A stretch of DNA of 64,000 bases from an uncultured Thermoleophilia bacterium (GCA_963829205.1 CAWHHT010000006.1:217885-281884); one strand, 5' to 3'; positions 6,195-59,700 are shown, counted from the first letter of the stretch. Translations and numbers: made by a program. Notes: a model not told the origin generated them from the letters alone.

Positions 6195-9950
<3,756 letters not shown>

Positions 9951-9975
9951 CCCCGCCTAGGCAGAGGGAGCGACA

Positions 9976-14229
<4,254 letters not shown>

Positions 14230-41060: not shown

Positions 41061-41095
41061 GGGCCGGCTCCGTGAGGAGCCGGCCCTTCTGCGTT
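41061..41095. terminator. bidirectional terminator between convergent fdx and methyltransferase genes
   Basis: AGGGCCGGCTCC-GTGA-GGAGCCGGCCCT then TCTGCGTT. Confidence 0.5.
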
Positions 41096-41982: not shown

Positions 41983-42413
41983 AGCGGGTACTCGTACACG
42001 CGCTGGTCTTTCACTACTCGACAGCCGATCGTGGGGTAGAACTCGTGCGCTCCGCGGCGCTCCGATCCCACACGGATGACGACGCGCAGCAAGCCCCTCT
42101 GGCGAGACCAGTCGGCTGCGGCCCCGAACAGAGCTGCGCCCACGCCCGACCGCCGGTAGGCGGCACCGACGACGAGGCCGCCGACCTCAGCGTACGGCTC
42201 GGACTCGATGACGCGCTGTACGTGCACATCTATGAAGCCGGCGACGTCGTCGCCGGCCTGCACTACCAGGATCGTCCGCTCGTGGTCCTCGAGCAAGCGG
42301 AGCCGCTCGAGGACCTGCTCTGTGGTGGATGGGTAGCCGAGCTCGCCGCAGAGCGCGGCCAGCGCCGCGGCGTCGGCCTCACCGGCCGCACGGATCTGCA
42401 GGTGCCCGTCCAC
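41979..42413 (-). CDS. GNAT family N-acetyltransferase
   Basis: 144 aa; acetyl-CoA binding RRSGVGAALF motif; 4-nt overlap with downstream methyltransferase. Confidence 0.75.
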   Translation of the reverse strand: MDGHLQIRAAGEADAAALAALCGELGYPSTTEQVLERLRLLEDHERTILVVQAGDDVAGFIDVHVQRVIESEPYAEVGGLVVGAAYRRSGVGAALFGAAADWSRQRGLLRVVIRVGSERRGAHEFYPTIGCRVVKDQRVYEYPL

Positions 42414-44260: not shown

Positions 44261-45145
44261 ATGGATCTCCTGGCCCGCATCGCAGAACGGCCGCAGTTGC
44301 TGGACGGCGGCCTCGGCCTCGCGCTGATGGTGCGCGGGTTCGCCGCCGGCGAGTGCCCCGAGGAGTGGAACGCCTCGCACCCCGCGGAAGTCGCGGACAT
44401 CCACCGCTCCTTCTATGCGGCGGGCTCGGACATCGTCAACACCAACACGTTCGGCGGCACCGCGCTCCGCCTGGAAGCGCACGGTCTCGCCGCGCGGTCT
44501 GTCGAGCTGAATGAGGCCGGCGCCCGCCTCGCGGTGGACGTGCGCGACCGCGAGTTCCCCGGCCGCCTGGTCGCCGGCGACATCGGCCCCACCGGCCGCA
44601 TGATCAAGCCGATGGGGGACGCCGACCCGGAAGTCCTCGGGGCGTCCTTCTTCGAGCAGGCCTCGGCACTTGTCGCCAGCGGGGTTGATCTGCTCAACAT
44701 CGAGACCATGTTCGATCTCACCGAGGCGCGCGTGGCCGTGGAGGCAGCCGTTGCCGCGGCGGGTGACCGCCCCGTCCTCGCCAGCCTCGCCTTCAAGCCG
44801 GCAGCCAAGGGCTACCGCACGATGATGGGCGTCTCTCCGGAGCAGGCCGTGCCGGCGCTGCTCGAGGCTGGAGCGGCCATCGTGGGCTGCAACTGCGAGA
44901 TCCCGGCCGAGACCATGGTGGATCTCGTCCCCGTCCTCGCGGCGCTCAACGGCGGGATCACGTACGCGCAGCCCAACGCCGGGCAGCCGCGACTGGAGGG
45001 GGAGGCGACCGTATACGGAGAGACGCCGGCTCACTTCGCTGGCATCGTCGCCACCTACCCGGCGGCCGGCGCGGGGATCGTCGGAGGCTGCTGCGGGACT
45101 CCGCCGGAGTCCATCGCCGCGCTCGCCGCGGCTCTCGGCCGCTGA
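44261..45145 (+). CDS. homocysteine S-methyltransferase domain protein (MmuM/BHMT/MetH-N-like)
   Basis: 294 aa; zinc ligands in GCNCEIP and GGCCGTPP motifs. Confidence 0.75.
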   Translation: MDLLARIAERPQLLDGGLGLALMVRGFAAGECPEEWNASHPAEVADIHRSFYAAGSDIVNTNTFGGTALRLEAHGLAARSVELNEAGARLAVDVRDREFPGRLVAGDIGPTGRMIKPMGDADPEVLGASFFEQASALVASGVDLLNIETMFDLTEARVAVEAAVAAAGDRPVLASLAFKPAAKGYRTMMGVSPEQAVPALLEAGAAIVGCNCEIPAETMVDLVPVLAALNGGITYAQPNAGQPRLEGEATVYGETPAHFAGIVATYPAAGAGIVGGCCGTPPESIAALAAALGR

Positions 45146-45177: not shown

Positions 45178-46134
45178 TCAGCCCAGGCTGGCGCGCCGGC
45201 GGAAGACGGCGCCGACCGTGTCGAGGATCAGGCGCGCGCCGTGCAGCGCCGTGACCTGACCGGGCCCGTCGTACTGCGGCGCAACCTCGACGAGGTCCAT
45301 GCCGATCACGTTGCAGCGGGCGCACACGGCCAGGAGGATCGCCTTGGCCTCGTAGTACGAGAAACCGCCGGGCTCGGGCGTGCCTGTGCCCGGCGCGATG
45401 GCGGGGTCGAGGGCGTCGATGTCGAACGTGATGTACACATCGGCGCCCGGCTCAAGGTGCTCGATCAGTTCGTCGACGAGCGTGTCCTTCGCCTGCTCGC
45501 ACCAGAAGATGTGCGCCCCACGCGACCGGGCCAGCGCGATGTTGTCGCCGGCGGTGTGCAGGCTGCGGATGCCGTACTGGGTGAGGCCGCTCAGCCACCC
45601 GGCCTCGTGCGAGCGGATGATGGGACTCGCGTGCGAGTAGCGCTGGCCGCCCTCCTCGTCCCAGTAGTCCATGTGGGTGTCGAACTGCACAAGGTGGAAC
45701 GGCGCCCCGTCACGCGCCCTCGAGAGCGTCTTGAGCACGGGGTAGGTGATCGAGTGATCGCCGCCGAGCGTCACGGGGAAGAGGCCGGCGGACACGATCG
45801 GCCGCAGGCGCTCGTCGACGGCGAGGTGGTACCGGTCGGCCGACCACATCGGGCCGATCGCCACATCGCCGCAGTCGGCCCAGCGCACGCCGCCGAGCAG
45901 TTCGACACCGGCTTCGCCGTCATAGAGCGTCTCGCGGTCCTGCTGGTAGGCCCACAAGGTCGAGGCCTCGCGCAGCGCCCTGGGCCCCATGCGGGACCCG
46001 GAGCGGTTGGTAGTGCCCTGGTCCCACGGGATGCCGATGACGGCGACCTCGGCATCGGCGCGCGTGGGCGCTGCGAGCGGCGGCGCTTTGAAGAACGTGG
46101 CGATGCCGCTGAACGGCAGCTCCTCGTAGGTCAT
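45178..46134 (-). CDS. speB: arginase-family ureohydrolase (agmatinase-like)
   Basis: GGDHSITYP, FDTHMD, DIDALDP manganese-binding motifs. Confidence 0.8.
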   Translation of the reverse strand: MTYEELPFSGIATFFKAPPLAAPTRADAEVAVIGIPWDQGTTNRSGSRMGPRALREASTLWAYQQDRETLYDGEAGVELLGGVRWADCGDVAIGPMWSADRYHLAVDERLRPIVSAGLFPVTLGGDHSITYPVLKTLSRARDGAPFHLVQFDTHMDYWDEEGGQRYSHASPIIRSHEAGWLSGLTQYGIRSLHTAGDNIALARSRGAHIFWCEQAKDTLVDELIEHLEPGADVYITFDIDALDPAIAPGTGTPEPGGFSYYEAKAILLAVCARCNVIGMDLVEVAPQYDGPGQVTALHGARLILDTVGAVFRRRASLG

Positions 46135-46176: not shown

Positions 46177-46647
46177 TCAGCCCGCGGGGCTCTCCGCGGG
46201 CGACCACTCGTAGTTGTCCTTGAGGATCTTGAGGTTGAGGAGGAAGTCGGCCTGCTCGACGCCGGGGATCGTGTGGATGTGGTTGACGAGCACGTCGAAG
46301 ACCTCCTCGCGGTCGTGCGCCACGACCCCGACGATGATGTCGAAGTTGCCGGCGCAGATGCTCACGTAGTCGACCTGCGGGAGCTCGGCGACCGCCTCGG
46401 CCACCGCCTCGAGGCGGTCGCCCGCCACGCGCAGATTGATCTGCGCCCAGATGAGGCCGAGGTCCAGCGGGCTGGTCACAGCCACGATCTGGATGATGTT
46501 GGTGCGCAGCAGGCGAGCGACCCGCTGCCGGACGCTCGCCTCGGAGATCCCGAGGTCCTTGGCGATGGCCGTGAAGGCCCGCCGCCCGTCGATCTGCAGG
46601 TGCCCGATGATGGCGATGTCGATCCTGTCTAGTGCCTGCTTGCGCAT
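46177..46647 (-). CDS. Lrp/AsnC family transcriptional regulator
   Basis: N-terminal HTH (LDRIDIAIIGHLQIDGRRAFTAIAKDLGISEASVRQRV) + RAM domain. Confidence 0.85.
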   Translation of the reverse strand: MRKQALDRIDIAIIGHLQIDGRRAFTAIAKDLGISEASVRQRVARLLRTNIIQIVAVTSPLDLGLIWAQINLRVAGDRLEAVAEAVAELPQVDYVSICAGNFDIIVGVVAHDREEVFDVLVNHIHTIPGVEQADFLLNLKILKDNYEWSPAESPAG

Positions 46648-46788: not shown

Positions 46789-48069
46789 TCAGGCGTGGTC
46801 GCCGGCAGGCTCCTCTACGCCGAGAACGACGCCCTGATCAGCGAGTGCCGATTGCAGGACCGCGACGTCGACGGCTCTCGGTGCGACGTTGCCGGCGACC
46901 GCGAGGGCGGCTGCCGTGCCCGCCGCCTGGCCCGTGGCCAGACAGACGGGGATCAGCCTCAGCTGGACCATGGCATCCTGCTGGGCAGACATGCATCGCC
47001 CCGCGACCAGGAGCCCGTCGACCTCCGCCGGCACGAGCGCACCGAAGGGGATCCGCATGCGTCGCCCGGAATAGGGCTTGGCCACCACGTCGGCACAGCT
47101 CCCCGAAAGCGCCTCTCTCAGGGAGGGTGAGCAACCGCCGACGATGCGGCGAGTCTCACGCACGCCGATCTGGTCCGCAGTGTACTCGAGCCATGCCTGT
47201 TCGAAGCCGGGGACGTTTCGGATCAGGAACTTGACTAACCTGAGGGCGTGACTTCGCGTGACGATCTCGGCGTTGGTCAGTTGACGCGGGTCCAGCCCGT
47301 TCACTCCGAACATGCTCCCCGGCCAAAGGTTGACTTCGCCCGGGTGGCAGAGGTCCGCCGCGAAGACGCCGGGGGCGAAGTACTTGGAGTGGATCTCAAG
47401 CTCGAAGTCGAGGTCGCCGTTTGCGACAGCTTCGTCGATCAGACGCCGAAGGTTGCCCCAGTTCCCGAGATGCTCGATGGCTCGGTCGCGGTCGACTCCC
47501 CCAAGATTCGCCATGAGCGTCACCGGCAAGGGACGCTCCTCCATCACGAACGCGGCGCCAGCGGATGCGGCGACGTCGCCGTCGCCGGTCACGTCCACGA
47601 CGACTCTGGCGAGCACGGCCGACCGTCCGGCCTTGTTCTCGACGATAACGCCGGTGACGGTCCCGTCCTCCGTCAACGACTGGACGACGTAGGTGTGGAG
47701 GAGGACCTCCACGCCGGCGTCAAGCAGCATCGTCATCATGTGCTGCTTGAGGAGCTCCGGGTCGACGGCGATGAGTCCGTCGACGGCCGGGTCGTCGCCG
47801 AGGTTCTTGCCCTCATGGTAGGAGTCGGCGCGCTCCAGCTCCTGACGGATCTCAACGTTGATGCCGTTGTCCAGCGGCGGCACGGTGATCACCAATCCGC
47901 CCGTCGCCAGACCGCCCAGGTAACCGTAGCGCTCGAGTAGAAGAACGCGCGCGCCGCTGCGCGCGGCGGAGACTGCCGCGGCCACCCCAGCGGATCCACC
48001 ACCACAGACCAGGACGTCGACTTCGGCCATGACATTCGTGCTCCGGGCGGCTTCTGCGATCTGCTTCAT
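46789..48069 (-). CDS. FAD-dependent oxidoreductase (FAD_oxidored/GIDA-like family)
   Basis: VLVCGGGSAGVAAAVSAARSGARVLLLE dinucleotide-binding fold; ATG overlaps stop of upstream OYE gene (ATGA). Confidence 0.7.
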   Translation of the reverse strand: MKQIAEAARSTNVMAEVDVLVCGGGSAGVAAAVSAARSGARVLLLERYGYLGGLATGGLVITVPPLDNGINVEIRQELERADSYHEGKNLGDDPAVDGLIAVDPELLKQHMMTMLLDAGVEVLLHTYVVQSLTEDGTVTGVIVENKAGRSAVLARVVVDVTGDGDVAASAGAAFVMEERPLPVTLMANLGGVDRDRAIEHLGNWGNLRRLIDEAVANGDLDFELEIHSKYFAPGVFAADLCHPGEVNLWPGSMFGVNGLDPRQLTNAEIVTRSHALRLVKFLIRNVPGFEQAWLEYTADQIGVRETRRIVGGCSPSLREALSGSCADVVAKPYSGRRMRIPFGALVPAEVDGLLVAGRCMSAQQDAMVQLRLIPVCLATGQAAGTAAALAVAGNVAPRAVDVAVLQSALADQGVVLGVEEPAGDHA

Positions 48070-49511
48070 GACGGCTGCCGCGCTTTCTTGATTCTCTGCT
48101 TGAGAGTCTGGAACTCGGGTCGCCGGCGGTAGAACTCGTCCAGCGCATAGCATCCGGAGCCGACCTGGAACGCTGGTGCGACGTCGCAGTAGCCGCATGT
48201 CGTGCAGATACGCTTGCGCCGGAGGGGCCGACCCTCGAGGACGTCGGCGCACATGTCGGGGTAGCTGAACGACATCCGACCGATGCCGATCGAGTCAGCA
48301 AGGCCCTCGCGTACTACGCCCTGGGCGACGTTCGGCAGCCACTGCTGAAGGTAGGAGTAGCCGCTCCCGACGTAGATGAGGTCGGGGTGGTCCCTCTTGA
48401 GGTCCGCTACAAGCGAGATCAGGCGTGCGACGCCTACAAGAGGATCCTCAGGCGGCTTGTGGGGCGCGACGGGCAGCGAGTTGTAGGGCTCCATCAGGTG
48501 CGAGTTGTACTCGGCCCCCGCCGAGACGCAGACGAGCTCGATACCGAGGTCGGTCAGCAGGTCGAGGAAGGCGAGCGGCTCCGTGAGGTCGATGCCGGCG
48601 CCCGAACCGTCCCCGCCGAAGGCGTAGGGGTACGTATTGGCGCCCAACGAGACTGGCTCCGTACGGTCGTCGGAGCCATCCGTGAAGGGGACGAAGTCCA
48701 AGGCGCTGAAACGCACCGCGACCTCGAGGCCTGGAACGGTGGAGCGTATGCCCGCGACGACCTCCCGAAGGAATCGGGTCCGGTTCTCGAAGCTGCCGCC
48801 GTAGCGCCCTGGCCGGTCGACGGCGCTCAGGAACTCATGACCCAGGTAGCCGTGGCAGTGCTTGATGTCGACGAAGTCGAAGCCCGCCGCCTGGGCAAGC
48901 TGGGCGGCGGCGACGAAGTCGCGGACGAGGCCATCGATCTCGTCGTCGGTCATCACCGCGTCGTCGCCTTCCGCTCCGTAGCGTTGATCGAGGATCGGGT
49001 GATGGTAAAGGATCCGGGGCTCTGGACGGTCCCACGAGTTCGGGTGTGACACGCGCCCCGAGTGGGTGAGCTGGACACCGACGAGCAGGTCGTCCGTCGA
49101 GGAGAAGCGCTCCTCGTGGCTGCTGACGAGGAGCGCCCGCAGCTCGCTGATCTCAGCGAGGTTGTTCTCGATCATCATGAGCTGGACAGGGCTGCCGCGG
49201 CCGTCCGGGCGGACCGCCATCGCTTCGGCGCCGAAGATGAGCTTGGCGCCGCTCTCGCCCCAGCGCCGCCAGCGCCGCCGTGTGAGCTCGGTGGGCTTGC
49301 CGTCGGTCGTGTTGTCCCAGCCCTCCATCGGCAGGATGGCGAACCGGTTCCCGACGTCCCTGCCGTAGACTGTGAAGGGCCGCGCCAAAGGAGAGCCCGG
49401 GCCCGAGATGACCTCGTCATCCAGCGGGAGTGTCAGACCCAGCGCCTTGAGGTAGGCACGGAACTCGGCCGGATCCTTGAGACCGCGCACGTTGCGTGTG
49501 ATCGCGCTCAT
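48066..49511 (-). CDS. Old-Yellow-Enzyme-type FMN oxidoreductase with C-terminal [4Fe-4S] motif (enoate-reductase/2,4-dienoyl-CoA-reductase N-terminal module)
   Basis: TIM-barrel Oxidored_FMN motifs (LTHSGRVSHP..., HCHGYLGHEFLS), then CTTCGYCDV-x10-C cluster motif; lacks fused FAD/NAD(P) domains. Confidence 0.8.
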   Translation of the reverse strand: MSAITRNVRGLKDPAEFRAYLKALGLTLPLDDEVISGPGSPLARPFTVYGRDVGNRFAILPMEGWDNTTDGKPTELTRRRWRRWGESGAKLIFGAEAMAVRPDGRGSPVQLMMIENNLAEISELRALLVSSHEERFSSTDDLLVGVQLTHSGRVSHPNSWDRPEPRILYHHPILDQRYGAEGDDAVMTDDEIDGLVRDFVAAAQLAQAAGFDFVDIKHCHGYLGHEFLSAVDRPGRYGGSFENRTRFLREVVAGIRSTVPGLEVAVRFSALDFVPFTDGSDDRTEPVSLGANTYPYAFGGDGSGAGIDLTEPLAFLDLLTDLGIELVCVSAGAEYNSHLMEPYNSLPVAPHKPPEDPLVGVARLISLVADLKRDHPDLIYVGSGYSYLQQWLPNVAQGVVREGLADSIGIGRMSFSYPDMCADVLEGRPLRRKRICTTCGYCDVAPAFQVGSGCYALDEFYRRRPEFQTLKQRIKKARQPS

Positions 49512-51364
49512 GTCGTAGCCCCTCCATGCTCAGCGACCAGTCGATACAGGCCGAGCTCCTCGAGCTTCTCGCGGCTGGGCATCGCGGTCCGCCGGTCCCA
49601 CTGCATGGCCTGGCAGTACTCATCGAGCAAGGCCTCCTCGTCGATGGTGATCCCAGCGGTACCCCCCTTGTCCAAGGGCGGCCTGCCAAGTGACCGCTGA
49701 TTGACCGTGATCATGAGCGGATTGATGCCCTCACGCAGGTTGAAGAGATGCCGGATGTTCTCAATGCGCTCTCCGATCATCACGCACGACTCGAAGTCGT
49801 GCTCACGTCCTGTGAGGGCTGTCAGGAACTCCGGGATGTAGCCGGTCGGGTGCGACGTGTACGCGAACAGGCAGTTGCCACAGGAGGACATCACGTGGCA
49901 CATCGCGGCGGCGCGCCGGTGGGATTCGCCGACGCCGGCGATGGCATACTTGTCATCCGGCGCCTCCATGAAGCCATTGCCCATGATCCACGAGCTGCCG
50001 CCGCGCGGGTGTCGGCCGGGCGTCGCGTCCATGCGGTAGACGAGAGCCAGGCTCGGGTAGAAGCGGGGGTCGTGGGCCGACAGCTCCTGGCCGCCGGCGT
50101 GGACGGCGTATTCCTCAGCGCCATTGCCGATCTGCTCGGCGGCCCGCATCACGCCGTCCGCGAGCACGGCGCCGATCCCTTCGCGCCGCGCGATCTTCTG
50201 AGCCAGTCTGACTACGCACTCTCCGTCGCCGAACGCGAGCTCCAGCCCGACCTCTTCGCGCGTGAGAAGGCCGTGTTCGTAGCACTCGATGGCAAAAGCC
50301 ACGGCGCCGCCCACGGAGATCGTGTCCAAGCCGTAGACATTGCAGATGTCGTTGAATCGGATGATCGACTCTAGGTCGTCGTTGCCACACAAGGGACCGC
50401 TCACGGCGATCGTCTCGTACTCCGGCACGTGGCTGACTCTGGCCCGGCCTTGCTTGGCCTTCAGGTGACCACCGCAGCGGATGTGACAGTGCCAGCATCC
50501 ATATGGCTTGTCCCGCTCGGCGTAGAACGCGTTCTCGTCGATCTTGTCGAGGCTGGGGTCGGAGTAGTCCTCCGGGTACGTGCCTACCCAGTTCTTGATC
50601 GGGGTGTCGCCGATGACAGTGTTGGGGACCGTGCGGCTCGTCGTGCCGTGGACCTTGAACTCGACCCCCTCGCCCATCAGCCGACTCGCCCACTTCTTGC
50701 GCAGCTGCTTCGCCAGGACCGGGTCGGGGATCGGCACCTCGCGGCTGCCCTTCACGACGACCGCCTTGAGCCTCTTGGAGCCCATGACCGCCCCGAGGCC
50801 GGAGCGCGCCGCCGCCCGGCCCTTGTGGGTGATGATGGACGCGAGCAGGGACACTGCCTCGCCGGCCGGACCGATGCAGGCAACGGAGGCATCGGCTCCG
50901 TGCAACGCCTGGAGGTCGTCTTCGCTGTCCAGGCAATCCTTGCCCCAGACGCTTGACGCGTCGTGCAGAGTGATCGCGCCGTCCTCGATCAGGGCGTAGG
51001 TCGGGGTCTCAGCGATGCCGCTGAAGAAGACGGCGTCGTAGCCGGCGAAACGCAGTCGCGGTCCGAAATCGCCGCCGCAGTTGGCGTCTCCCCAGCCGCC
51101 TGTGAGAGGCGACTTGCCGACCACCGTGAAGCGGCCGCTGCAGATCGCCGGGGTGCCCGTGAAGGGCCCTGTCACAAACCCGAGCAGATTGTCGGGGCCG
51201 AGTGGATCGACGCCGGCGGGCATGCGCTCATACAGTATCCGGGCGCCGAGGCCATAGCCTCCGACGAAGTCGCGGCACATGTCCTCGTCGATCTCCTCCG
51301 CATGGGAGACGCCGCTCGTGAGGTCGACGAAGAGGAGCTTGCCCATGTAGCCGTAGACAGTCAT
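49508..51364 (-). CDS. aldehyde:ferredoxin oxidoreductase (AOR) family tungsto/molybdopterin enzyme, paralog 2
   Basis: 618 aa; N-terminal AOR_N (KLLFVDLTSG...), CWHCHIRC (CxxCxxxC) cluster ligands; ATG after GAGGAG overlapping stop of paralog 1. Confidence 0.85.
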   Translation of the reverse strand: MTVYGYMGKLLFVDLTSGVSHAEEIDEDMCRDFVGGYGLGARILYERMPAGVDPLGPDNLLGFVTGPFTGTPAICSGRFTVVGKSPLTGGWGDANCGGDFGPRLRFAGYDAVFFSGIAETPTYALIEDGAITLHDASSVWGKDCLDSEDDLQALHGADASVACIGPAGEAVSLLASIITHKGRAAARSGLGAVMGSKRLKAVVVKGSREVPIPDPVLAKQLRKKWASRLMGEGVEFKVHGTTSRTVPNTVIGDTPIKNWVGTYPEDYSDPSLDKIDENAFYAERDKPYGCWHCHIRCGGHLKAKQGRARVSHVPEYETIAVSGPLCGNDDLESIIRFNDICNVYGLDTISVGGAVAFAIECYEHGLLTREEVGLELAFGDGECVVRLAQKIARREGIGAVLADGVMRAAEQIGNGAEEYAVHAGGQELSAHDPRFYPSLALVYRMDATPGRHPRGGSSWIMGNGFMEAPDDKYAIAGVGESHRRAAAMCHVMSSCGNCLFAYTSHPTGYIPEFLTALTGREHDFESCVMIGERIENIRHLFNLREGINPLMITVNQRSLGRPPLDKGGTAGITIDEEALLDEYCQAMQWDRRTAMPSREKLEELGLYRLVAEHGGATT

Positions 51365-53403
51365 CCTTGCTCCTCGCATCTCGGGGTCGCATCCTGAGGG
51401 CCCGGCGTCGCCTGCCGACACAGCCGGTCGAGCTGGTCGGCAACGTCGCCGAGGCCGAGATCGTCGAGTCTCGCTCGCGTCGGCCAGCCGCTGGCCAGGT
51501 CCCATCCGCGATGCCGGTAGTAGCTGTCCAGGATCTCGTCGAACAGCGCCTGGTCCAGTCTGCTGCCGTCGGACTTCTCCGGGTACTCGAAGACCCACTC
51601 GGCCTGCTCGTCCACCGTACGCGAGCGGCCGCTGTTGCGGATCTGCAGGGCGCGATCCAGGTTGCGGATACGCTCGCCCGCGCGGTCGAGTTCAGCCGTT
51701 GTGATGTCGAGACCCGTGAGCGGCGCCAGCATGGCAGCTTCCGCGTCTACGTCGCCGTAGTAGTCGTCAGCCGCCGCCAGCTCCTCCGCAGTATCGAACC
51801 CGTTCAGGACCCGCGGGAAGACCCAATCGCACAGCAGGAGCGAGTCCTTGACCTGGGCGCGGTCGTCGAACCACTTGGTGACGAGGGTCTTGGCCTGGAG
51901 GTGCTCAAACCCCGGGTCGAGGATGCCCGGCACGCCGAACACCCGCGTGAACGTCGCCTCCAGCTTCTGGCGCTCCACCAGCGCCGACCCGCCCTCGAAA
52001 TGTGGAGGGAACCAGCAGTGGATGTAGCCGGTCTGGTGATGGGACGTCAGCGGGTCACGCGAGTCGATGGCCCAGTGCAGCATGTCGAAGATCCACAAGG
52101 GGCTGGGCTGTGGCTCGCAGGCGCGTCCGTCTCGATGTGAAGGGAATCCCCACATCGGTTCCAGCCAGCGCGCCGTGCGCTTGACGATGTCGGGCAGATC
52201 GAGGCGGTCGCAGGCCGGCAAGAGTCCGTCCGCCAGCGCGTCCCCGAGGCCCTCGCGGTAGGCGATCATGTGGAACAGATCAAACCAGAAGTCGAGTTCC
52301 TCCGGCCTCAGAGCCATTCCCTGGATCTCGGTCACGCCGTGGTCGAGACAGGCCAGGAACCAGCAGCGGAGCGTGAGATAGCTCCAGCCGGAGAGCCCGA
52401 GAGTCTCGATGAGCAACTGCAACTCGTCGCCGCCCGTCTTGCCAAGGCCCTCGATCGCCCGGGTGCGCAGCTCGCCGGCGTAGTGCTCCTCGATGGCCGG
52501 CGTCGGGTACTGGTACCAGTTCCAGCCGCCTTCGTACGCTTCGCCGTTACACATGACGGCGATGTTCTTGCGGCCGTTCTGGCCCGGGAGCCTCTGCGCG
52601 ACGCCGTGCGAGCGCGTCGCGCAGCCAAAGGGGCAGCCGTGGGCGCACGGCACGTTCGTCGGCCCCATCGTCATCCGTACAGGGGTCTCGGTGGGGCCGG
52701 CGTGGACAAGGCGATGCACGCGCTTGCAGGCGTCGATGAAGCGCTTCGGGTCGGCGATCGGCACCGAGCCCGTCCCCCTGATGACGATCGCCTTGAGGTG
52801 TTTGCTGCCCATCACGGCGCCGAACCCTGCCATGCCGGCGCAGTTCTTCTGACGGTGATGGATGGTTGCAGAGACTACGAGGTTCTCGCCGGCCGGCCCG
52901 ATGCAGATGACTTGGGCGGCCTCGCCGTGACGCTCCTTGAGGCGCTCCTGAACGGCGAAGACGTCCTCGCCCCACAGATCGTCTGCGGGGCGCACCTCTG
53001 CCTCGCCGTCGTGCACGTAGAGGTAGCTCGGCTGGTCGGCGATGCCCTTCAGTACCACTCCGTCGAAGCCGGCGTACTTGAGCTCCGGCGTCCAGTTGCC
53101 TCCCATGCCGCTGTACGTGAACCACGGTTCGGGCAGCGTGCGGGGCGACACGGAGCAGACGGTGCCCTTACCCGACGTAGGCGCCAAGGTCCCGGAGAAG
53201 GGCCCCGTCATGAACATGAGCAGGTTGTCGGGTGAGTACGGCCCGGTGCCCGGGGCCAACTCGTCCCACGCGATGCGCGTGGCGATGCCCTTGCCGCCGA
53301 TGTAGGCCGGGACGTACTTCGCGGTCTCTTCGCTGGTGATGGCGGACGCAGACAGATCGACTCGGAGGATGCGACCAGCCCAGCCGCCGGGAGCAGCACT
53401 CAC
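51361..53403 (-). CDS. aldehyde:ferredoxin oxidoreductase (AOR) family enzyme, paralog 1
   Basis: 680 aa; GTG after AAGGAGA; GRILRVDLSAS AOR_N start, CAHGCPFGC variant cluster motif; overlaps polyferredoxin stop. Confidence 0.85.
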   Translation of the reverse strand: MSAAPGGWAGRILRVDLSASAITSEETAKYVPAYIGGKGIATRIAWDELAPGTGPYSPDNLLMFMTGPFSGTLAPTSGKGTVCSVSPRTLPEPWFTYSGMGGNWTPELKYAGFDGVVLKGIADQPSYLYVHDGEAEVRPADDLWGEDVFAVQERLKERHGEAAQVICIGPAGENLVVSATIHHRQKNCAGMAGFGAVMGSKHLKAIVIRGTGSVPIADPKRFIDACKRVHRLVHAGPTETPVRMTMGPTNVPCAHGCPFGCATRSHGVAQRLPGQNGRKNIAVMCNGEAYEGGWNWYQYPTPAIEEHYAGELRTRAIEGLGKTGGDELQLLIETLGLSGWSYLTLRCWFLACLDHGVTEIQGMALRPEELDFWFDLFHMIAYREGLGDALADGLLPACDRLDLPDIVKRTARWLEPMWGFPSHRDGRACEPQPSPLWIFDMLHWAIDSRDPLTSHHQTGYIHCWFPPHFEGGSALVERQKLEATFTRVFGVPGILDPGFEHLQAKTLVTKWFDDRAQVKDSLLLCDWVFPRVLNGFDTAEELAAADDYYGDVDAEAAMLAPLTGLDITTAELDRAGERIRNLDRALQIRNSGRSRTVDEQAEWVFEYPEKSDGSRLDQALFDEILDSYYRHRGWDLASGWPTRARLDDLGLGDVADQLDRLCRQATPGPQDATPRCEEQG

Positions 53404-53873
53404 GGCGTTCTCCTTTGCCGGTGCACCAAGGCGTCCCACGGGCACATCTCCACGCACTGAGGACCGCCGTCGATTCCCCGGCAGAGGTCGCACTTGAAGG
53501 AGACTTCGGCCGTGCCCTTCGTCTTGCGCCAGATCGGCGATCGCGGCAGGGGGCACGCTTCGGCGCAGGCGCCGCAGCCGTCGCATTCGCGCTCGTCGAT
53601 GTAGCGCGTACCGGTTTCCGGGTCAATGCACAGGGCGAGGTCCGGGTAGGGGCAAGCCTCGTAGCACTGCGCCGTCGCGCACTGGGTGCAGATCACCGCG
53701 GGGAAGGCGAAGGCGAAGTCGTCGGCTTCGATGTGGATGCGCGAGAGGTGGGCGCTGCAGGCGCCGTCGTGAACGGCGGAGCACACAAGCTCGCAGATCC
53801 TGCAGCCCCTACATAACGTTTTCTTGTGAACGACGACGCTCGATGCGTTTCTCATCGCGACAGGCATCCTCAC
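53400..53873 (-). CDS. multi-cluster [4Fe-4S] polyferredoxin, putative AOR electron-transfer subunit (AorA-like)
   Basis: 157 aa with CxxCxxCxxxC-type motifs (CRGCRICELVC, CTQCATAQCYEACP, CDGCGACAEACP, CDLCRG...C). Confidence 0.8.
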   Translation of the reverse strand: MRMPVAMRNASSVVVHKKTLCRGCRICELVCSAVHDGACSAHLSRIHIEADDFAFAFPAVICTQCATAQCYEACPYPDLALCIDPETGTRYIDERECDGCGACAEACPLPRSPIWRKTKGTAEVSFKCDLCRGIDGGPQCVEMCPWDALVHRQRRTP

Positions 53874-54047
53874 ACGTCATAATCGAGCCTAGAAGCGTCC
53901 CCTCCGCTCCACGATGGCGCAGAGCATACAAGAAATGTTGGCAAAAGAAAACGATTGCTTTCTGAAGCGCCATGTGGTGGACTCCGCGCTAGCGGTGGCC
54001 GACGGTGAGCCACCTGGGGAGCTGTGTCGGCAAGGGGAGCACGCGCC

Positions 54048-54680
54048 ATGGAGTTCCGACGGATGCTGAGCGAGACCCGCGTCGTCCCGGTCGTGGAGAT
54101 ACCACGAGTCGAGGACGCCGTGCCGCTCGCGACCGCTCTGATCGAGGGTGGCCTTCCGTGCGCCGAGATCACATTCCGCACGGCCGCGGCTGCGGCTGCG
54201 ATCGCCGCCATCAGCGCCGCCCTGCCCGCGTTTCTCGTGGGCGCCGGAACTGTCCTGACCGTGCCCCAGGCGGAGGAGGCCGTCGCGGCGGGTGCGCGAT
54301 TCCTCGTCTCGCCGGGCCTTGACGACGCCGTCGTCGGGTACGCCCGCGACAATGGCGTCGCGATGCTGCCTGGAGTCTGCACGCCGAGCGAGATCGCTCG
54401 AGCCATGTCGCATGGTCTCGATCTGATGAAGTTCTTCCCGGCCGAGGCTCTCGGCGGCCTCAGCTATCTCAAAGCCGTCGCCGCTCCGTTCGGCGCGGTG
54501 AGCTTCGTCCCGACCGGCGGTATCGGGCCGACCAACCTGTCCGCCTATCTGGAACACCCCCAGGTCGTGGCCTGCGGCGGCAGCTGGATGGTGAAGAGGC
54601 AGACGATCGCCGACGGCGACTTCGCGGCGATCACCCGGCTGACGGCCGAGGCGGTCGCGCTCGCCTCGGCGGTCGCGTGA
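54048..54680 (+). CDS. eda: 2-dehydro-3-deoxyphosphogluconate (KDPG)/KHG aldolase
   Basis: internal ATG of ORF 54024..54680; Eda family (VVPVVEI...GLPCAEITFRT...FFPAEALGG...). Confidence 0.8.
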   Translation: MEFRRMLSETRVVPVVEIPRVEDAVPLATALIEGGLPCAEITFRTAAAAAAIAAISAALPAFLVGAGTVLTVPQAEEAVAAGARFLVSPGLDDAVVGYARDNGVAMLPGVCTPSEIARAMSHGLDLMKFFPAEALGGLSYLKAVAAPFGAVSFVPTGGIGPTNLSAYLEHPQVVACGGSWMVKRQTIADGDFAAITRLTAEAVALASAVA

Positions 54681-54691
54681 AGGAGGCACTG

Positions 54692-55792
54692 ATGCACGTA
54701 GTGAGCCCCCGCGCCCCCGAGGAGTGCCGATGGGACCTCGTGGCTCTCGGAGAGGTCATGCTGCGGCTGGATCCCGGCGAGGGCCGCATCGCGACCACGC
54801 GAACGCTGCGCGTCTGCGAGGGGGGCGGTGAGTACAACGTCGCCCGCGGCCTGCGCCGATGCTTCGGCCTGCGCACGGCGGTGGTCACGGCGCTGGCCGA
54901 CAACCCAGTCGGGCGGCTCGTAGAGGACCTGATGCTGCAAGGCGGCGTCGACCAGTCGCACGTCAAGTGGGTGCCCTACGACGGTGTCGGACGGGGGGTG
55001 CGCAACGGACTCAACTTCACCGAGCGGGGGTTCGGGGTGCGCGGCGCCATCGGTTGCTCCGATCGCGGCAACACGGCGGTCAGTCAGCTACGCCCCGGAG
55101 ACGTCGACTGGGATGAGGTCTTCGCTCGCGAGGGTGCACGCTGGTTCCACTGCGGCGGGATCTTCGCGGCGCTCAGCGAGACCACCGCGGGGGTCACCGC
55201 GGAGGCGATGGCTGCGGCTCGCCGGCACGGCACCATCGTGTCCTACGATCTCAACTACCGACCCTCGTTGTGGAAGGCGATAGGCGGGCAGGAACGCGCT
55301 CGCGATGTCAACCGGGGGCTGGCTCCTCTCGTCGACGTCATGATCGGCAACGAGGAGGACTTCAGCGCCGCCCTCGGCTTCACCGTCGAGGGAGTCGACG
55401 AGAATCTGTCTGAGCTGGACCCGCGACACTTCGGACAGATGATGACCCGCGTCGGCGAGACCTACCCGAACATCCGCGTGGTCGCGACGACGCTACGCTC
55501 CGTCCGCAGCGCTTCGTGCAACGACTGGAGCGCCGTCTGCTGGGCAGACGGTCGGCTGTTCAAGTCGGTGCCCAGGCCCGGTCTCGAGATCCTCGACAGG
55601 GTGGGCGGCGGCGACTCGTTTGCCTCGGGGTTGATCTTCGGGCTCTTGTCCGGCTTCGACACGCAGAAGGCTCTGGAATACGGCGCCGCGCACGGTGCCC
55701 TCGCCATGACCACTCCAGGAGACGTTTCGATGGCGACGAGCGCCGAGGTAGAGGCACTCGTCCGCGGCGTCGGCGCAAGGGTGCAGCGATGA
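54692..55792 (+). CDS. kdgK: PfkB-family sugar kinase (2-dehydro-3-deoxygluconokinase-like)
   Basis: ATG preceded by AAGGAGG (ORF 54677..55792 frame); PfkB motifs incl. GGGDSF. Confidence 0.78.
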   Translation: MHVVSPRAPEECRWDLVALGEVMLRLDPGEGRIATTRTLRVCEGGGEYNVARGLRRCFGLRTAVVTALADNPVGRLVEDLMLQGGVDQSHVKWVPYDGVGRGVRNGLNFTERGFGVRGAIGCSDRGNTAVSQLRPGDVDWDEVFAREGARWFHCGGIFAALSETTAGVTAEAMAAARRHGTIVSYDLNYRPSLWKAIGGQERARDVNRGLAPLVDVMIGNEEDFSAALGFTVEGVDENLSELDPRHFGQMMTRVGETYPNIRVVATTLRSVRSASCNDWSAVCWADGRLFKSVPRPGLEILDRVGGGDSFASGLIFGLLSGFDTQKALEYGAAHGALAMTTPGDVSMATSAEVEALVRGVGARVQR

Positions 55793-55808: not shown

Positions 55809-56903
55809 ATGACGCCGAGACGTGTCTCACTGCGCGAGGTCGCCCGCCTGGCGGGAGTCTCGTCCAGCACTGCGTCGCGTGTCTTGAGCGGATCAGACTA
55901 TCGAGTGAGCGAGTCCACCGCGGCGCGGGTGAGAGATGCCGCCCAGAAGCTCGGCTACGTCACGGACTTCGCGGCGCGAGCACTGGTCACCGGGCGTAGC
56001 ACGCTGGTCGGCGCGATCGTGCACGACATCACCGACCCGTACTTCAGCGGAGTCGTTCGTGGGCTGCAAGACGAGGCGGTCGCGGAAGGCCTGGTGGTCC
56101 TGGTCGGCAACGACGATCGCGACGCCGGCAAGCTTGAGGCGTACCTGACGATGATGTTGAGCCAGAAGCCGGCCGGCGTCGTCCTCGTCGGTGGCCAGGT
56201 CCGCGACCCTGCGAAGTCGCTCCGGGTCTTTCGGGCGGTGGACCGCCTTCGGGAGGAGGGCGTGCCTGTCGCAGCCGTCGGCCGCTACGAGCTCGACATC
56301 CCGCACGTTGCCGTGGACGACGCCGCGGCCGCCGAATGCGCCGTGGCGCACCTGATCGACATGGGTCACACACGGATCGCCTTCGTCGGCGGGCCGCTTG
56401 ACTCCACGACGGTGGAGGATCGTCACAACGGCTACCGGGCGGCGCTGAATCGTGCCGGCATCCCCGTGGACGACGATCTCGTCGTTCAGACTCCCATGTC
56501 GCTGAGGGGTGGATCCTCGGCGGCTGACCAGCTGGTCGCTTGCGGCGCCGGCTTCACGGCCGCGTTTGCGGCGACGGACGAGGTCGCGTTCGGCGTCATC
56601 TCCGGTCTGAGGGACTGTGGCCTGCGCGTGCCCGAGGACGTCAGCATCGTCGGTATGGACGACGTCCCGATGGCTTCACACGCCGACCCCCCGCTCACCA
56701 CCATCCACGTCCCGGCCAAGGAGCTGGGGCGGTCGGCGTGGCACCTCCTCTGGGCCGTCAGGGAGGGAGGCCAGGCAGCAGAGATGCAGTGCGTGCCGTT
56801 CGACCTCGTGGTCCGTTCCTCGACTGCGCCTCCGAGCGCCGCAGGCTTTGCCGGCTCTCCCTCCACCGGCAACCAGGGCACGACAGCTCGAAAGGATTGG
56901 TGA
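55809..56903 (+). CDS. LacI family transcriptional regulator
   Basis: N-terminal HTH VSLREVARLAGVSSSTASRVLSG + periplasmic-binding-like sugar domain. Confidence 0.88.
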   Translation: MTPRRVSLREVARLAGVSSSTASRVLSGSDYRVSESTAARVRDAAQKLGYVTDFAARALVTGRSTLVGAIVHDITDPYFSGVVRGLQDEAVAEGLVVLVGNDDRDAGKLEAYLTMMLSQKPAGVVLVGGQVRDPAKSLRVFRAVDRLREEGVPVAAVGRYELDIPHVAVDDAAAAECAVAHLIDMGHTRIAFVGGPLDSTTVEDRHNGYRAALNRAGIPVDDDLVVQTPMSLRGGSSAADQLVACGAGFTAAFAATDEVAFGVISGLRDCGLRVPEDVSIVGMDDVPMASHADPPLTTIHVPAKELGRSAWHLLWAVREGGQAAEMQCVPFDLVVRSSTAPPSAAGFAGSPSTGNQGTTARKDW

Positions 56904-56911
56904 CATCAGGA

Positions 56912-58258
56912 ATGGCCAGCAAGCGCACCGAAGAGCTCGTCGCCTACGATCGCGAGCACATCCTTCACGCTCAGATCCCCCTCGGTGAGAACCTGGGCGT
57001 GATCTACGACACGGCCGAGGGCGTCAGGCTGTGGGACACCGAAGGCAGGATGTACCTCGACGCCTCGTCGCAGATGGTCAGCTGCAACCTTGGCCACGGG
57101 CGTCGCGAGATCATCGAAGCGGCGCAGCAGCAGCTCGACAAGCTCCAGCATGTCGGCCAGTACTACGGGCACTCAAGCACGCCGATGGTCGAGTGCGCGA
57201 TGAAGCTTTCCACGATCACACCGGGCGACCTCGATCACTTCTGGTTCACGTCCGGCGGCGGCGAATCCACCGACGCCGCAGTGCGCCTTGCCAGACGCTA
57301 CTGGAACGCGGTCGGCCAGCCAACGAAGCAGAAGGTGATCAGCCTCTACATGAGCTACCACGGAACCGGCAACGGTCCCATGAATATGACGGGCATCCCG
57401 GCGATGCAGGCCGGCTACGGCCCCCAGGCCCCAGGCTACGTCCATATCCCGGCCTACTACTGCTACCGATGCCCGTTCGGGCTCGAGTACCCGTCGTGCG
57501 ACATGCGCTGCGCGCGGCACCTGGAGACGATCATAGAGGCTGAAGGAGCGGAGAACATCGCAGCCTTCATCGCGGAGCCCGAACTGGGAGCGTCCGGCTT
57601 CCTCGTCCCTCCGGACGAGTACTGGCCGCTGATCCGCGAGATCTGTACCAGGCACGACGTCACGATGATCGCCGACGAGGTCATGTGCGGGTTCTGCCGC
57701 ACCGGCACGATGTTCTGCATCGATCACTGGGACGTCGTCCCCGACATGATCGCCATGTCCAAGGGCATCACCAGCGGGTACCTGCCCTTCGGGGCTGTGG
57801 CCTTCAACGACAAGATCTGGGAAGGCCTTCGCGGTACGCCGCTGATGCACCAGTACACGTTCAGCGGCGCTCCGGCGCCCTGCGCTGCTGCGATGGCGGC
57901 GATCGACGTCTACGTGAACGACAAGGTGGCGGAGAACGCCACCCGCGTCGGGCAGCACATCGTCGACCGGATCGAGGCCGAGCTCATGCCGATGCCGTGC
58001 GTCGGCACGCACAGCGGCCTCGGCCTGATGCTGGCCATCGAGATCGTCGCCGACAAGCAGACCAAGGCCATGTTCGACCCGCCGCTGGCGCCGATCATGC
58101 CGCTGCTCGACGAGGCTCGCCGGCGCGGCCTGCACCTGCGTCAGATGGGCTCCAACCGGATCGTCATCGCACCGCCGTGCACGACGACGATCGCGGAGGC
58201 CGACGAGATCTTTGACATCCTCAAGCCGCTGGTGGCCGCTATCGAGGCGCCGCGATGA
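56912..58258 (+). CDS. class III (omega) aminotransferase, PLP-dependent
   Basis: internal ATG of ORF 56540..58258; 448 aa; conserved AT-III fold incl. IADEVMCGFCRTG and Schiff-base Lys region AMSKGITSG. Confidence 0.85.
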   Translation: MASKRTEELVAYDREHILHAQIPLGENLGVIYDTAEGVRLWDTEGRMYLDASSQMVSCNLGHGRREIIEAAQQQLDKLQHVGQYYGHSSTPMVECAMKLSTITPGDLDHFWFTSGGGESTDAAVRLARRYWNAVGQPTKQKVISLYMSYHGTGNGPMNMTGIPAMQAGYGPQAPGYVHIPAYYCYRCPFGLEYPSCDMRCARHLETIIEAEGAENIAAFIAEPELGASGFLVPPDEYWPLIREICTRHDVTMIADEVMCGFCRTGTMFCIDHWDVVPDMIAMSKGITSGYLPFGAVAFNDKIWEGLRGTPLMHQYTFSGAPAPCAAAMAAIDVYVNDKVAENATRVGQHIVDRIEAELMPMPCVGTHSGLGLMLAIEIVADKQTKAMFDPPLAPIMPLLDEARRRGLHLRQMGSNRIVIAPPCTTTIAEADEIFDILKPLVAAIEAPR

Positions 58259-58329
58259 CTCGACGAGCAAACGATGCAGAAGCGTCAGGAGACCATGTGC
58301 CGCGTCGCGGCACGTCCCAGGAGGAGAAC

Positions 58330-59583
58330 ATGAGCAGACGCAGGACCGTGTGGGTCGTTCTTGCCGTAGCGCTACTGGCGCTGACGGCGGCCGCCGTGCT
58401 GGCGGCGTGCGGAAGCGGGTCGTCGTCAAGCACGTCGGCGAGCTCGGGGACGGGCCAGACCAAGACGCTGACCATCGGCGTCCTCATGCCGTTCTCCGGC
58501 GACGGCGCGCTCTGGGGCCAAACGGAGCTGGCCAGCACCCAGGTGGCCGCCGAGCACATCAACGCGGCGGGGGGAGTCAAAGCCGGCAACGACACCTACA
58601 AGCTCGCGGTCAAGGCCTACGACAACCAGTGGGACCCGGCCGTCTCCGCGACCGTCGCGCGCAAGGCCGTGGCGGACGGCGTCCGCTACGTCCTGTCGTG
58701 GTCGGGCCCGGAGGTCCTCGCCGAGAACGCTGCCACGCGGGGGACGACCGTTCTCACGTTCGTCACCGCTTCCGACGCGATTTGCCAGGGCCCCAAGCAC
58801 CCGAACAACTACAACAGCTGGTTCTACTATCCCGACAACCTGCAGGTCCTGTACACGTACGCCAAGAAGATCCACCCCGACTTCCAGACGGTCGTGCCGA
58901 TCGTGACCGATGACGCAGTGTCGCTCCAGGAGGTCAAGTACCTCCAGCAGTACGTCACGCCGATCGGGTTCAATGTGCTTCCTGCCGTGAAGATCAGCGG
59001 CGACGAGACCGACTACTACCCTGTGCTGACCCCCCTGATCAAGAAGGGCGTGGACATCATCGACATCGCCTCGCCGGGTCCCGAGGCCGCGTCACTCATC
59101 ATCAAGCAGGCCCACGAGCTTGGCTACAAGGGCATATTCGCGCATGCCGATGCTCCCAATATCGACGACTACGCCAAGGTCGCCGGCTGGAAGGCCCTCG
59201 AGGGCTTCCTCGGGGCTCCCGTGTACACCGAGCTCTCCGCGGTGGGCAAGACCTGGCAGACGGACTACATGAAGAAGACGCAAGGCGACAAGTCGACCGG
59301 CCCCACAGCCGACTACGACAGCATCCTGCTGCTGGCGGCAGCGATCACGAAGGCCGGCACGGTCGACGCGGATGCCGTCAACAAGGCTCTGCCGACGGTG
59401 AGCGTCGAGGGCACCACCGGCAAGACGATGTTCGGCGGCGCCGACGTGCTCGGCATCCCTCATCTTCTGGAGCGGCCCATAGGCGTCGTTCAAGTCGAGA
59501 ACGGCAAGATCGTGAACGTCTACACGGGCTGGCCTGCTCGCATCAGTGCGACCATGTCGCCGTCGCCGTCGCCGGCACAGTGA
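58330..59583 (+). CDS. ABC transporter substrate-binding lipoprotein (Liv/Peripla_BP_6 family)
   Basis: ATG after GGAGGAGAAC; lipobox LAAC; type-I PBP fold. Confidence 0.8.
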   Translation: MSRRRTVWVVLAVALLALTAAAVLAACGSGSSSSTSASSGTGQTKTLTIGVLMPFSGDGALWGQTELASTQVAAEHINAAGGVKAGNDTYKLAVKAYDNQWDPAVSATVARKAVADGVRYVLSWSGPEVLAENAATRGTTVLTFVTASDAICQGPKHPNNYNSWFYYPDNLQVLYTYAKKIHPDFQTVVPIVTDDAVSLQEVKYLQQYVTPIGFNVLPAVKISGDETDYYPVLTPLIKKGVDIIDIASPGPEAASLIIKQAHELGYKGIFAHADAPNIDDYAKVAGWKALEGFLGAPVYTELSAVGKTWQTDYMKKTQGDKSTGPTADYDSILLLAAAITKAGTVDADAVNKALPTVSVEGTTGKTMFGGADVLGIPHLLERPIGVVQVENGKIVNVYTGWPARISATMSPSPSPAQ

Positions 59584-59700
59584 CGGGAGCAAAGCTGGAG
59601 CTCAGGTAGGTACCCGGCCCGGCGCTCCGCCTGGCGCCACCACGACCGTGCGTCGGTCGCATGGCGGCAGGCGGAGCGCCGGGCCTCAAAGGGAGTGAGT

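Follow-up and report, generated by a model that had tools for sequence, protein, structure and literature searches.

The WOR family of tungsten/molybdenum (W/Mo) oxidoreductases was divided in a 2026 classification into five classes by subunit composition (L; LS; LS+N; LS+ABC; and the membrane-linked YdhV type), and 5 of the 92 clades recognized there have a known physiological role. Here we describe a five-gene operon at positions 46789-53873 of a 64-kb stretch of DNA (GCA_963829205.1, CAWHHT010000006.1:217885-281884; hereafter the window), which encodes a polyferredoxin (Fdx), two WOR-family large subunits (AOR1 and AOR2), an old yellow enzyme (OYE)-like flavin mononucleotide (FMN)/[4Fe-4S] protein and a flavin adenine dinucleotide (FAD) protein. 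The window has a GC content of ~67% and comes from a soil actinobacterium of the Thermoleophilia type. All parts of the operon belong to known superfamilies, and the OYE-like Fe-S flavoprotein is without counterpart in the five published classes: none of them includes a protein of this kind or a PF12831 partner, and such neighbors go unmentioned in the classification. We favor, at a probability of about 0.55, the reading of the operon as a mosaic in which three redox modules serve one catabolic pathway, and not as one obligatory five-subunit enzyme.

Members of the family that oxidize aldehydes carry the second-shell residues Thr243, Glu313, Tyr427 and His448, in the numbering of the Pyrococcus furiosus (Pf) aldehyde:ferredoxin oxidoreductase (AOR) (PMC12096430, PMC13328260). 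A Cys ligand to the metal together with loss of this second shell is the mark of BamB and YdhV (PMC12096430). The only non-aldehyde chemistry known in the WOR family is the ring reduction carried out by BamB, while YdhV has no assigned function.

Three described systems are closest to the part of the operon that contains Fdx, AOR1 and AOR2. BamBC, the active-site module of class II benzoyl-CoA reductase from Geobacter metallireducens (PDB 4Z3W), likewise consists of a WorL-type subunit and an adjacent polyferredoxin. BamB and AOR1 have N-domain motifs in common (MGGxW-PELKYAG and VSPxT), the W-ligand Cys322 of BamB aligns with C285 of AOR1, and both proteins are without the Thr/Glu second shell. 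The identity of ~38% between them is limited to the N domain, however, and the cluster motif of AOR1 is shifted (Cx3Cx3C). In addition, BamC has three clusters whereas Fdx has four Cys motifs, and the context of BamBC is aromatic degradation whereas the genes here belong to amine and sugar-acid catabolism. The Escherichia coli YdhV/YdhY pair (Class V, clade 41; Mo-bis-molybdopterin) provides the best NCBIfam models for AOR1 and Fdx, both far below the equivalog cutoffs (YdhV scores 307 bits where 868 are required; YdhY, PRK09898, falls short of its cutoff of 213). YdhV shares Cys336, His423, His456 and an LC(D/N)W motif with AOR1, at 26% identity over 334 C-terminal residues, and YdhY is 28% identical to Fdx. 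The E. coli system differs in having a Tat signal and membrane/cytochrome subunits, and no YdhWXUT-like genes occur here. Finally, the Class III enzyme AorABC from Aromatoleum aromaticum and the Class IV enzyme WOR1, which has five subunits, from Acetomicrobium mobile and Eubacterium limosum combine, as here, an AOR-type subunit, a 4x[4Fe-4S] polyferredoxin and one or more flavoprotein partners in one operon. Unlike those systems, the present operon has two dissimilar WorL genes and one WorS gene, and its FAD protein (PF12831, one dinucleotide site) resembles neither AorC/WorN (IPR004982/IPR023753) nor the HydABC-like WorABC; it is not of the Pyr_redox_2 type that characterizes the WorN of Class III. 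A literature search returned no published description of the five-gene arrangement, in agreement with an earlier suggestion that it is undescribed, none of the sugar-acid context of the OYE-like family, and nothing relevant on tungsten in Thermoleophilia.

Results and Discussion

Operon Layout

Five minus-strand open reading frames lie within 46789-53873, and their coordinates and Pfam domains agree with a preliminary description of this DNA. Fdx (53400-53873, 157 residues) is a WorS-type polyferredoxin that matches Fer4 families and contains four Cys motifs, beginning at residues 21, 62, 97 and 128, for 4x[4Fe-4S]. The divergent large subunit AOR1 (51361-53403, 680 residues, GTG start) scores 226 bits with AFOR_N and gives a partial match of 120 bits to AFOR_C, and the canonical AOR-type WorL, AOR2 (49508-51364, 618 residues), scores 249 and 314 bits, respectively; all of these values are above the Pfam cutoffs of 29.8 bits for AFOR_N and 27 bits for AFOR_C. 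The OYE-like protein (48066-49511, 481 residues) is an FMN TIM barrel (Oxidored_FMN, 100 bits) with a C-terminal FadH-type [4Fe-4S] motif. The FAD protein (46789-48069, 426 residues; FAD_oxidored PF12831, 290 bits) has a geranylgeranyl-reductase/FixC-like fold with a single dinucleotide-binding motif.

All four junctions are start/stop overlaps, as had been proposed, and each is exactly 4 nt long (GTGA, ATGA, ATGA and ATGA) rather than 2-4 nt. Three of the four downstream start codons have a GGAG-like Shine-Dalgarno motif ahead of them. Overlaps of 4 nt are also seen elsewhere in the window, at the KDPG-aldolase/kinase, aminotransferase/binding-protein and permease/ATPase junctions. Because the same overlaps join genes in this genome whose products do not form complexes, they support an operon and not a complex specifically; they are an operon habit of this genome and no specific sign of a stoichiometric complex.

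The Two WOR-Family Large Subunits

The matches of AOR1 to solved structures are confined to its N domain and its last ~100 residues, and when AOR1 or its family profile was aligned to PDB chains with HMMER, the central residues 240-480 could not be placed reliably. MAFFT was used instead on two sets of sequences. The first contained 16 members of the AOR1 family (36-68% identity), BamB (residues 6-418, rebuilt from an HMMER print-out), YdhV from E. coli MG1655, AOR2 and two canonical AORs, and the second contained 116 full-length AOR1 relatives. FOR, 9mqx and 9g7j were likewise rebuilt from printed alignments, and E. coli FadH was fetched.

The cluster motifs are as the preliminary description gave them, a variant CAHGCPFGC in AOR1 and a canonical CxxCxxxC in AOR2. 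In the MAFFT alignment, the AOR1 motif (C253-x3-C257-x3-C261) aligns with the canonical one with its first Cys shifted by one residue, and C525 of AOR1 aligns with C494 of Pf AOR. These cysteines are kept in the 116 relatives almost throughout (C253 in 115, C257 and C261 in all, C525 in 103). In AOR2, C290-xx-C293-xxx-C297 and C498 correspond to C288, C291, C295 and C494 of Pf AOR. Both proteins therefore keep the cluster Cys residues, and both keep most of the pterin-site residues as well.

The active sites are distinct. C285 of AOR1 falls in the same column as Cys322 of BamB and Cys336 of YdhV in two MAFFT alignments and is invariant among the relatives (116/116), so that C285 may be a Cys ligand to the metal as in BamB and YdhV. 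The second shell of aldehyde-oxidizing AORs (Thr243, Glu313, Tyr427, His448) is not found in AOR1: the Thr is not conserved, the Glu313 column is variable or gapped (A/T/K/H/D), and a His occupies the Tyr position. In the alignment of 116 relatives, H423 and H456 of AOR1 are held in common with YdhV. A neighbor-joining tree, rough in that it covers 22 taxa and 360 columns and includes a partial BamB sequence, places the AOR1 family with BamB and YdhV, apart from FOR, the Clostridium autoethanogenum AOR, WOR1-L and AOR2, with a bootstrap value of 0.945. The AlphaFold2 model of AOR1 (mean predicted local distance difference test, pLDDT, of 81.6) has the WOR fold, with TM scores of 0.64-0.76 to WOR structures. 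Foldseek searches with this model did not separate BamB from the canonical AORs, and the fold alone does not classify AOR1 because the search cannot tell the subfamilies apart.

AOR2 gives a quite different picture. It matches the large subunit of A. mobile WOR1 (9mqx_D) from end to end (2e-105, 36% identity), which is its best solved relative, and its alignments with C. autoethanogenum AOR, Pf AOR and FOR likewise span the full length. T241, E317 and H452 of the second shell are present, and His431 stands at the position of Tyr427, as does a His in 101 of the 133 nearest AOR2 representatives. The same Tyr-to-His substitution has been reported for the AOR of C. formicoaceticum (PMC12096430). 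From these residues, AOR2 is predicted to be a canonical aldehyde:ferredoxin oxidoreductase.

The two large subunits fall on either side of the principal functional divide within the WOR family. It had been proposed that the AOR catalytic subunit is duplicated here. The proteins are 31% identical over ~420 residues, AOR1 groups with BamB/YdhV and AOR2 is of the canonical aldehyde-oxidizing type; on account of this low identity and the unlike active sites, a recent duplication was rejected.

Among relatives, Fdx goes with AOR1 and not with AOR2. It is encoded directly upstream of AOR1 in every relative examined, down to 42% identity, and Fdx-AOR1 is the only pair kept in distant lineages (down to 42-43% identity), which agrees with the WorL+WorS composition of Class II. 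Since no twin-arginine (Tat) motif is found in the N-terminus of Fdx (MRMPVAMRNASSVVVHKK), we regard the pair as cytoplasmic. AOR1 is therefore best described, as far as its sequence can indicate, as the large subunit of an uncharacterized, cytoplasmic, Cys-signature WOR clade. Its active site resembles those of BamB and YdhV (predicted Cys ligand, no Thr/Glu second shell), and for this reason AOR1 probably does not oxidize ordinary aldehydes; by analogy it may carry out a low-potential reduction. The AOR1 family is widespread, with members in uncultured Chloroflexota, Bathyarchaeia, Spirochaetes and Desulfobacterales.

The OYE-like and FAD Proteins

The OYE-like protein keeps the hallmarks of the FMN site (QLTHSGR, GYLGHEFLS, YGGSxENRxRF and GIGR). 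It has the same barrel as FadH, enoate reductase and the trimethylamine dehydrogenase (TMADH)-type enzymes, and its four-Cys motif (C436-xx-C439-xx-C442-x11-C454) stands at the position of the [4Fe-4S] ligands C335/338/342/354 of FadH. Those enzymes have fused FAD/NAD(P)H domains, however, and the OYE-like protein has no reductase domain. The active site differs as well: in place of the HxxH/N of the FadH type, the family alignment shows an unusual K217-H218-C219-H220-G-Y222, with E63 at the Cys/Thr position. The family is strongly conserved (50-70% identity across Chloroflexota, Planctomycetes and others), and in its wider membership Phe is often found at the second Cys of the cluster motif.

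The FAD protein had tentatively been taken for the split-off FAD/NAD(P)H half of an enoate reductase, an assignment that probably does not hold. It contains one GxGxxG motif, its Pyr_redox_2 score of 22 bits is below the cutoff of 26.1 and covers residues 18-51 only, and its homology to the C-terminal half of FadH extends over 36 residues only. The fold is of the geranylgeranyl-reductase/FixC type, at 15-18% identity to these proteins. Geranylgeranyl reductase and FixC, the latter resembling ETF-quinone oxidoreductase, are supplied with electrons by partners of the ferredoxin type; no FixX- or ETF-like genes adjoin the FAD gene.

Homologs of the FAD protein (55-63% identity) occur in two further loci (L numbers denote loci of relatives), L095 (141-19266) and L096 (2116-10260), beside genes for HGD-D 2-hydroxyacyl-CoA-dehydratase-like proteins and family-III CoA-transferases, with BcrAD-type activase genes nearby in L096 and AcnX genes nearby in L095. 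These neighborhoods hint that the PF12831 flavoprotein family serves low-potential reductive pathways.

They also bear on a reading in which the operon reduces aromatic or other CoA esters, with AOR1 and Fdx acting like BamBC in ring dearomatization and the OYE-like and FAD proteins taking the part of dienoyl-CoA or naphthoyl-CoA reductases. Such a role would fit the N-domain motifs and the Cys at the ligand position that AOR1 has in common with BamB, as well as the HGD-D/BcrAD and CoA-transferase genes that adjoin the FAD homologs in L095 and L096, and OYE-family Fe-S flavoenzymes do reduce aromatic CoA esters. Nevertheless, BamDEFGHI genes are absent from the window, L001-L009, L098 and L099, and neither these nor CoA ligase, CoA transferase or beta-oxidation genes occur near the seven examined loci that have the five-gene arrangement. 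The context in those loci is instead an aminotransferase, a sugar-acid kinase and an aldolase, and that of the OYE family at large is GH88-like, SDR and KDG genes. Because no Bam or CoA genes are found nearby, we set this reading aside as extremely improbable.

Conservation and Separation of the Modules

The closest loci, L001-L004, come from metagenome-assembled genomes labelled 'uncultured Thermoleophilia bacterium' and have the same gene order, with 80-88% protein identity. The window, L001, L002, L009 and L099 share one gene order, Fdx-AOR1-AOR2-OYE-FAD, with which the frameshifted L003 and L004 are consistent. In these last two (L003, 10001-16622; L004, 10001-16251), AOR1, AOR2, OYE and FAD are split into tblastn segments in different frames; the frame breaks are probably indels of long-read assembly and do not mark pseudogenes.

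L099 (3434-14543) has a GC content of 0.48 against 0.67 in the window. Its genes are co-directional (nine in all) in the order aldolase, PfkB, Fdx, AOR1, AOR2, OYE, FAD, aminotransferase. The six core proteins (Fdx, AOR1, AOR2, OYE, FAD and the aminotransferase) are 61-76% identical to those of the window, the aminotransferase, encoded directly after the FAD gene, being 76% identical, whereas identity drops to 32% for the aldolase and 40% for the kinase. The six genes therefore seem to have been transferred, or kept, together. In L099 only the Fdx/AOR1 junction overlaps, and gaps of 77-490 nt follow AOR1.

In the window, the corresponding genes lie on the plus strand of a divergent operon, in which a KDPG/KHG aldolase (Pfam Aldolase, 54024-54680) is followed by a PfkB sugar-acid kinase (54677-55792; Pfam PfkB, with KDG-kinase-like NCBIfam matches), a LacI-family regulator (55809-56903), a class-III (omega-type) aminotransferase (56906-58258) and a Liv-type ABC transporter (58255-63010; a binding protein with Peripla_BP_6, two permeases with BPD_transp_2 and two ATPases with ABC_tran), all identified with Pfam. 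Beyond the transporter, this operon also encodes a xylose-isomerase-like TIM-barrel protein. The aldolase and PfkB genes adjoin the five genes in L001-L003 and L009 as well; L004 has no confident aldolase match. The conserved partners of the five genes are the class-III aminotransferase, the PfkB kinase and the KDPG/KHG-type aldolase, and not the Lrp/AsnC regulator (Pfam; 46177-46647, minus strand) that the preliminary description correctly placed downstream of the operon. The Lrp gene is present in L001-L004 and L014, and none lies beside the cluster in L009 or L099. Its membership is doubtful because it is kept only in close relatives.

Outside these loci, the components are found separately. 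Fdx and AOR1 occur without the other three genes in five loci (43-58% identity), four of which represent separate lineages (one Spirochaete, one Bathyarchaeote and two metagenome bins); the AOR1 relatives that have only the polyferredoxin upstream are P0023 (54%), the Spirochaete (46%), the Bathyarchaeote (43%) and P0012 (58%). In two unrelated lineages, L098 (5388-9995) and L007 (7537-13363), an Fdx+AOR1-family pair lies near URO-D-like (methyltransferase-type) genes, and in L098 it also adjoins the gene of a B12-binding corrinoid protein.

For the OYE gene, we surveyed 80 metagenome loci around its homologs (L014-L093). An FAD partner stands beside it only in the Thermoleophilia-type L014, where an Lrp gene follows downstream; the L014 contig begins at the OYE gene, so that its upstream side is off the contig and AORs there would not be visible. 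In the other 79 loci, neither AORs nor the FAD partner adjoin the OYE gene, and in L060 a distant FAD homolog (34%) lies several kb away. The recurrent neighbors are a DHDPS/NAL-fold protein (19 loci), SDR (16) and GH88-like (12) proteins, along with MFS, GFO/IDH/MocA and RidA proteins. They form strings such as GH88-like>OYE>SDR>MFS, GH88-like>SDR>PfkB>aldolase>OYE and DHDPS-fold protein>OYE, and the order kinase>aldolase>OYE is seen in three loci. Examples are L025 (7262-10410) and L085, L087 and L088 (around 9001-10400). Because of these recurrent neighbors and gene strings, we tie the OYE-like family to keto-deoxy sugar-acid pathways, and its operons look like an undescribed step in the catabolism of unsaturated uronates or keto-deoxy sugar acids.

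One locus combines the OYE and FAD genes without any AOR or polyferredoxin. L094 (1-10308) reads PfkB-LacI-Aldedh-SDR-Aminotran_3-AA_permease-OYE-FAD, and its proteins are close to those of the window (aminotransferase, 85%; PfkB, 77%; OYE, 68%; LacI, 67%; FAD, 64%). It carries an NAD-type aldehyde dehydrogenase (ALDH) and an SDR where the window has Fdx, AOR1 and AOR2, and an AA_permease in place of the ABC transporter, and it appears to represent the same pathway context.

These loci argue against a single stoichiometric hetero-oligomer, which had been proposed from the coupling of the genes and would constitute a new WOR class in which aldehyde oxidation at the AOR subunits drives C=C reduction by the OYE-like and FAD proteins through an internal Fe-S wire. 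The four ATGA/GTGA overlaps of the window, the identical gene order in all loci with the five-gene arrangement, including the low-GC L099, and an Fe-S cluster or flavin in every subunit are what such an enzyme would show, and multisubunit WORs with polyferredoxin nanowires are known (AorABC and the five-subunit WOR1). Yet OYE and FAD stand without AOR or polyferredoxin in L094, Fdx and AOR1 do without the other three genes in five loci, the OYE gene has no AOR or FAD neighbors in most loci, and L099 has its gaps after AOR1. The overlaps, as noted, also join non-complex genes in this genome, and the FAD protein is no module of the WorN kind and probably none of the enoate-reductase kind. The operon itself stands; the hetero-oligomer appears rather unlikely.

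Functional Interpretation

In the mosaic that we favor, Fdx and AOR1 form the first module, predicted to be a cytoplasmic two-subunit W/Mo bis-pyranopterin enzyme (WorL+WorS) that fits Class II; AOR2, which alone fits Class I, is the second; and the OYE-like FMN/[4Fe-4S] protein with the FAD protein is the third. The neighboring ABC transporter would import the substrate, an amine, which the class-III aminotransferase would convert to an aldehyde. AOR2 would oxidize this aldehyde, or possibly one released by the aldolase, to the acid, and its low-potential electrons would be handed to the Fe-S clusters of the polyferredoxin, from which AOR1 and/or the OYE-like and FAD proteins would draw them for reductive steps. 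The carbon skeleton would end as a 2-keto-3-deoxy acid, to be phosphorylated by the PfkB kinase and cleaved by the KDPG-type aldolase. In the L094 variant, pyridine-nucleotide enzymes would serve the same route. Domain content, cofactor-ligand motifs, the difference between AOR1 and AOR2, the separability of the modules and the conserved linkage to aminotransferase, kinase and aldolase are observations; the substrate, the direction of electron flow, the physical contacts and the choice between W and Mo are inferences.

Several points weigh against this interpretation. No genes for molybdenum cofactor (Moco) synthesis or for tungstate or molybdate transport occur within the 64-kb window. The ligand role of C285 rests on alignment, the AOR1 model is poor near the cluster motif (pLDDT under 50 for residues 238-260), and the tree that groups AOR1 with BamB and YdhV is a rough one, as described above. 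The replacement of the AOR module by ALDH and SDR rests on a single locus, L094. Finally, the strict gene order across very different GC contents, together with the overlaps in the window, also fits a physical complex.

The kinase and aldolase that flank the cluster allow another role to be considered, in which the operon serves a modified Entner-Doudoroff pathway. AOR2, with the polyferredoxin, would oxidize what the adjacent KDPG/KDG aldolase releases, as a glyceraldehyde or glyceraldehyde-3-phosphate:ferredoxin oxidoreductase, and the other proteins would reoxidize ferredoxin. GAPOR and GOR are WOR-family enzymes of glycolytic variants, GOR being a WorLS heterodimer, and AOR2 gives a weak partial match to archaeal GAPOR. 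That match, however, is 41 bits against a cutoff of 1300, and the polyferredoxin tracks AOR1 rather than AOR2. Moreover, the aldolase and kinase of L099 have diverged far more (32% and 40%) than the core proteins (61-76%), and the co-conserved aminotransferase (76-85% identity) is left unexplained. We consider this role decidedly improbable.

A bolder proposal, which we judge quite unlikely and offer tentatively, is that the five proteins, possibly with the aminotransferase, make up a sixth, undescribed class of W/Mo oxidoreductase. A canonical aldehyde-oxidizing WorL and a Cys-ligated, BamB/YdhV-like WorL would share one polyferredoxin, and aldehyde oxidation (about -500 mV) would directly power a demanding non-aldehyde reduction at AOR1 and/or the OYE-like and FAD proteins while an amino or sugar-acid compound is broken down. 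If this were true, Cys-ligated WORs would gain a third cytoplasmic clade in the AOR1 family, and with it new chemistry.

A cytoplasmic Cys-signature clade whose members invariably come with a polyferredoxin would offer a testable handle on the function of Cys-ligated WORs if it belongs to a defined catabolic setting (aminotransferase, kinase, aldolase); L094-type clusters, in which NAD-type enzymes stand where the AORs would be, would then allow a natural comparison. The operon also places predicted oxygen-sensitive W/Mo pterin enzymes in soil Thermoleophilia and flags a conserved, apparently unstudied family of OYE-like Fe-S flavoproteins linked to keto-deoxy sugar-acid pathways.

Other Features of the Window

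The five-gene operon and the divergent genes are separated by a 150-bp intergenic control region (53874-54023) with a GC content of 0.53-0.56 against ~0.67 in the flanks, in line with the AT-richer upstream region of the preliminary description. No Rfam riboswitch, including that for Moco, and, in a promoter scan, no sigma-70 consensus site was found in this region. Terminator-like matches were disregarded since they lie inside coding sequence.

Downstream of the operon and the Lrp gene lies an agmatinase-type gene of the arginase family (45178-46134) that passes the TIGR01230 cutoff. The agmatinase-type and Lrp genes both follow the operon in the window and in L001-L004, but in neither L009 nor L099. 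A gene of the homocysteine S-methyltransferase family (44261-45145) is three genes away from the operon. Further along, an N6/N4 DNA methylase gene (41095-41982, minus strand) and a GNAT acetyltransferase gene (41979-42413) abut each other; no restriction partner was seen for the methylase. The other end of the window (2421-34424) carries a tRNA gene (2421-2493) and, after it, the conserved supercluster of rpoB/rpoC, ribosomal-protein and secY genes, and the catabolic island starts ~10 kb downstream of this supercluster.

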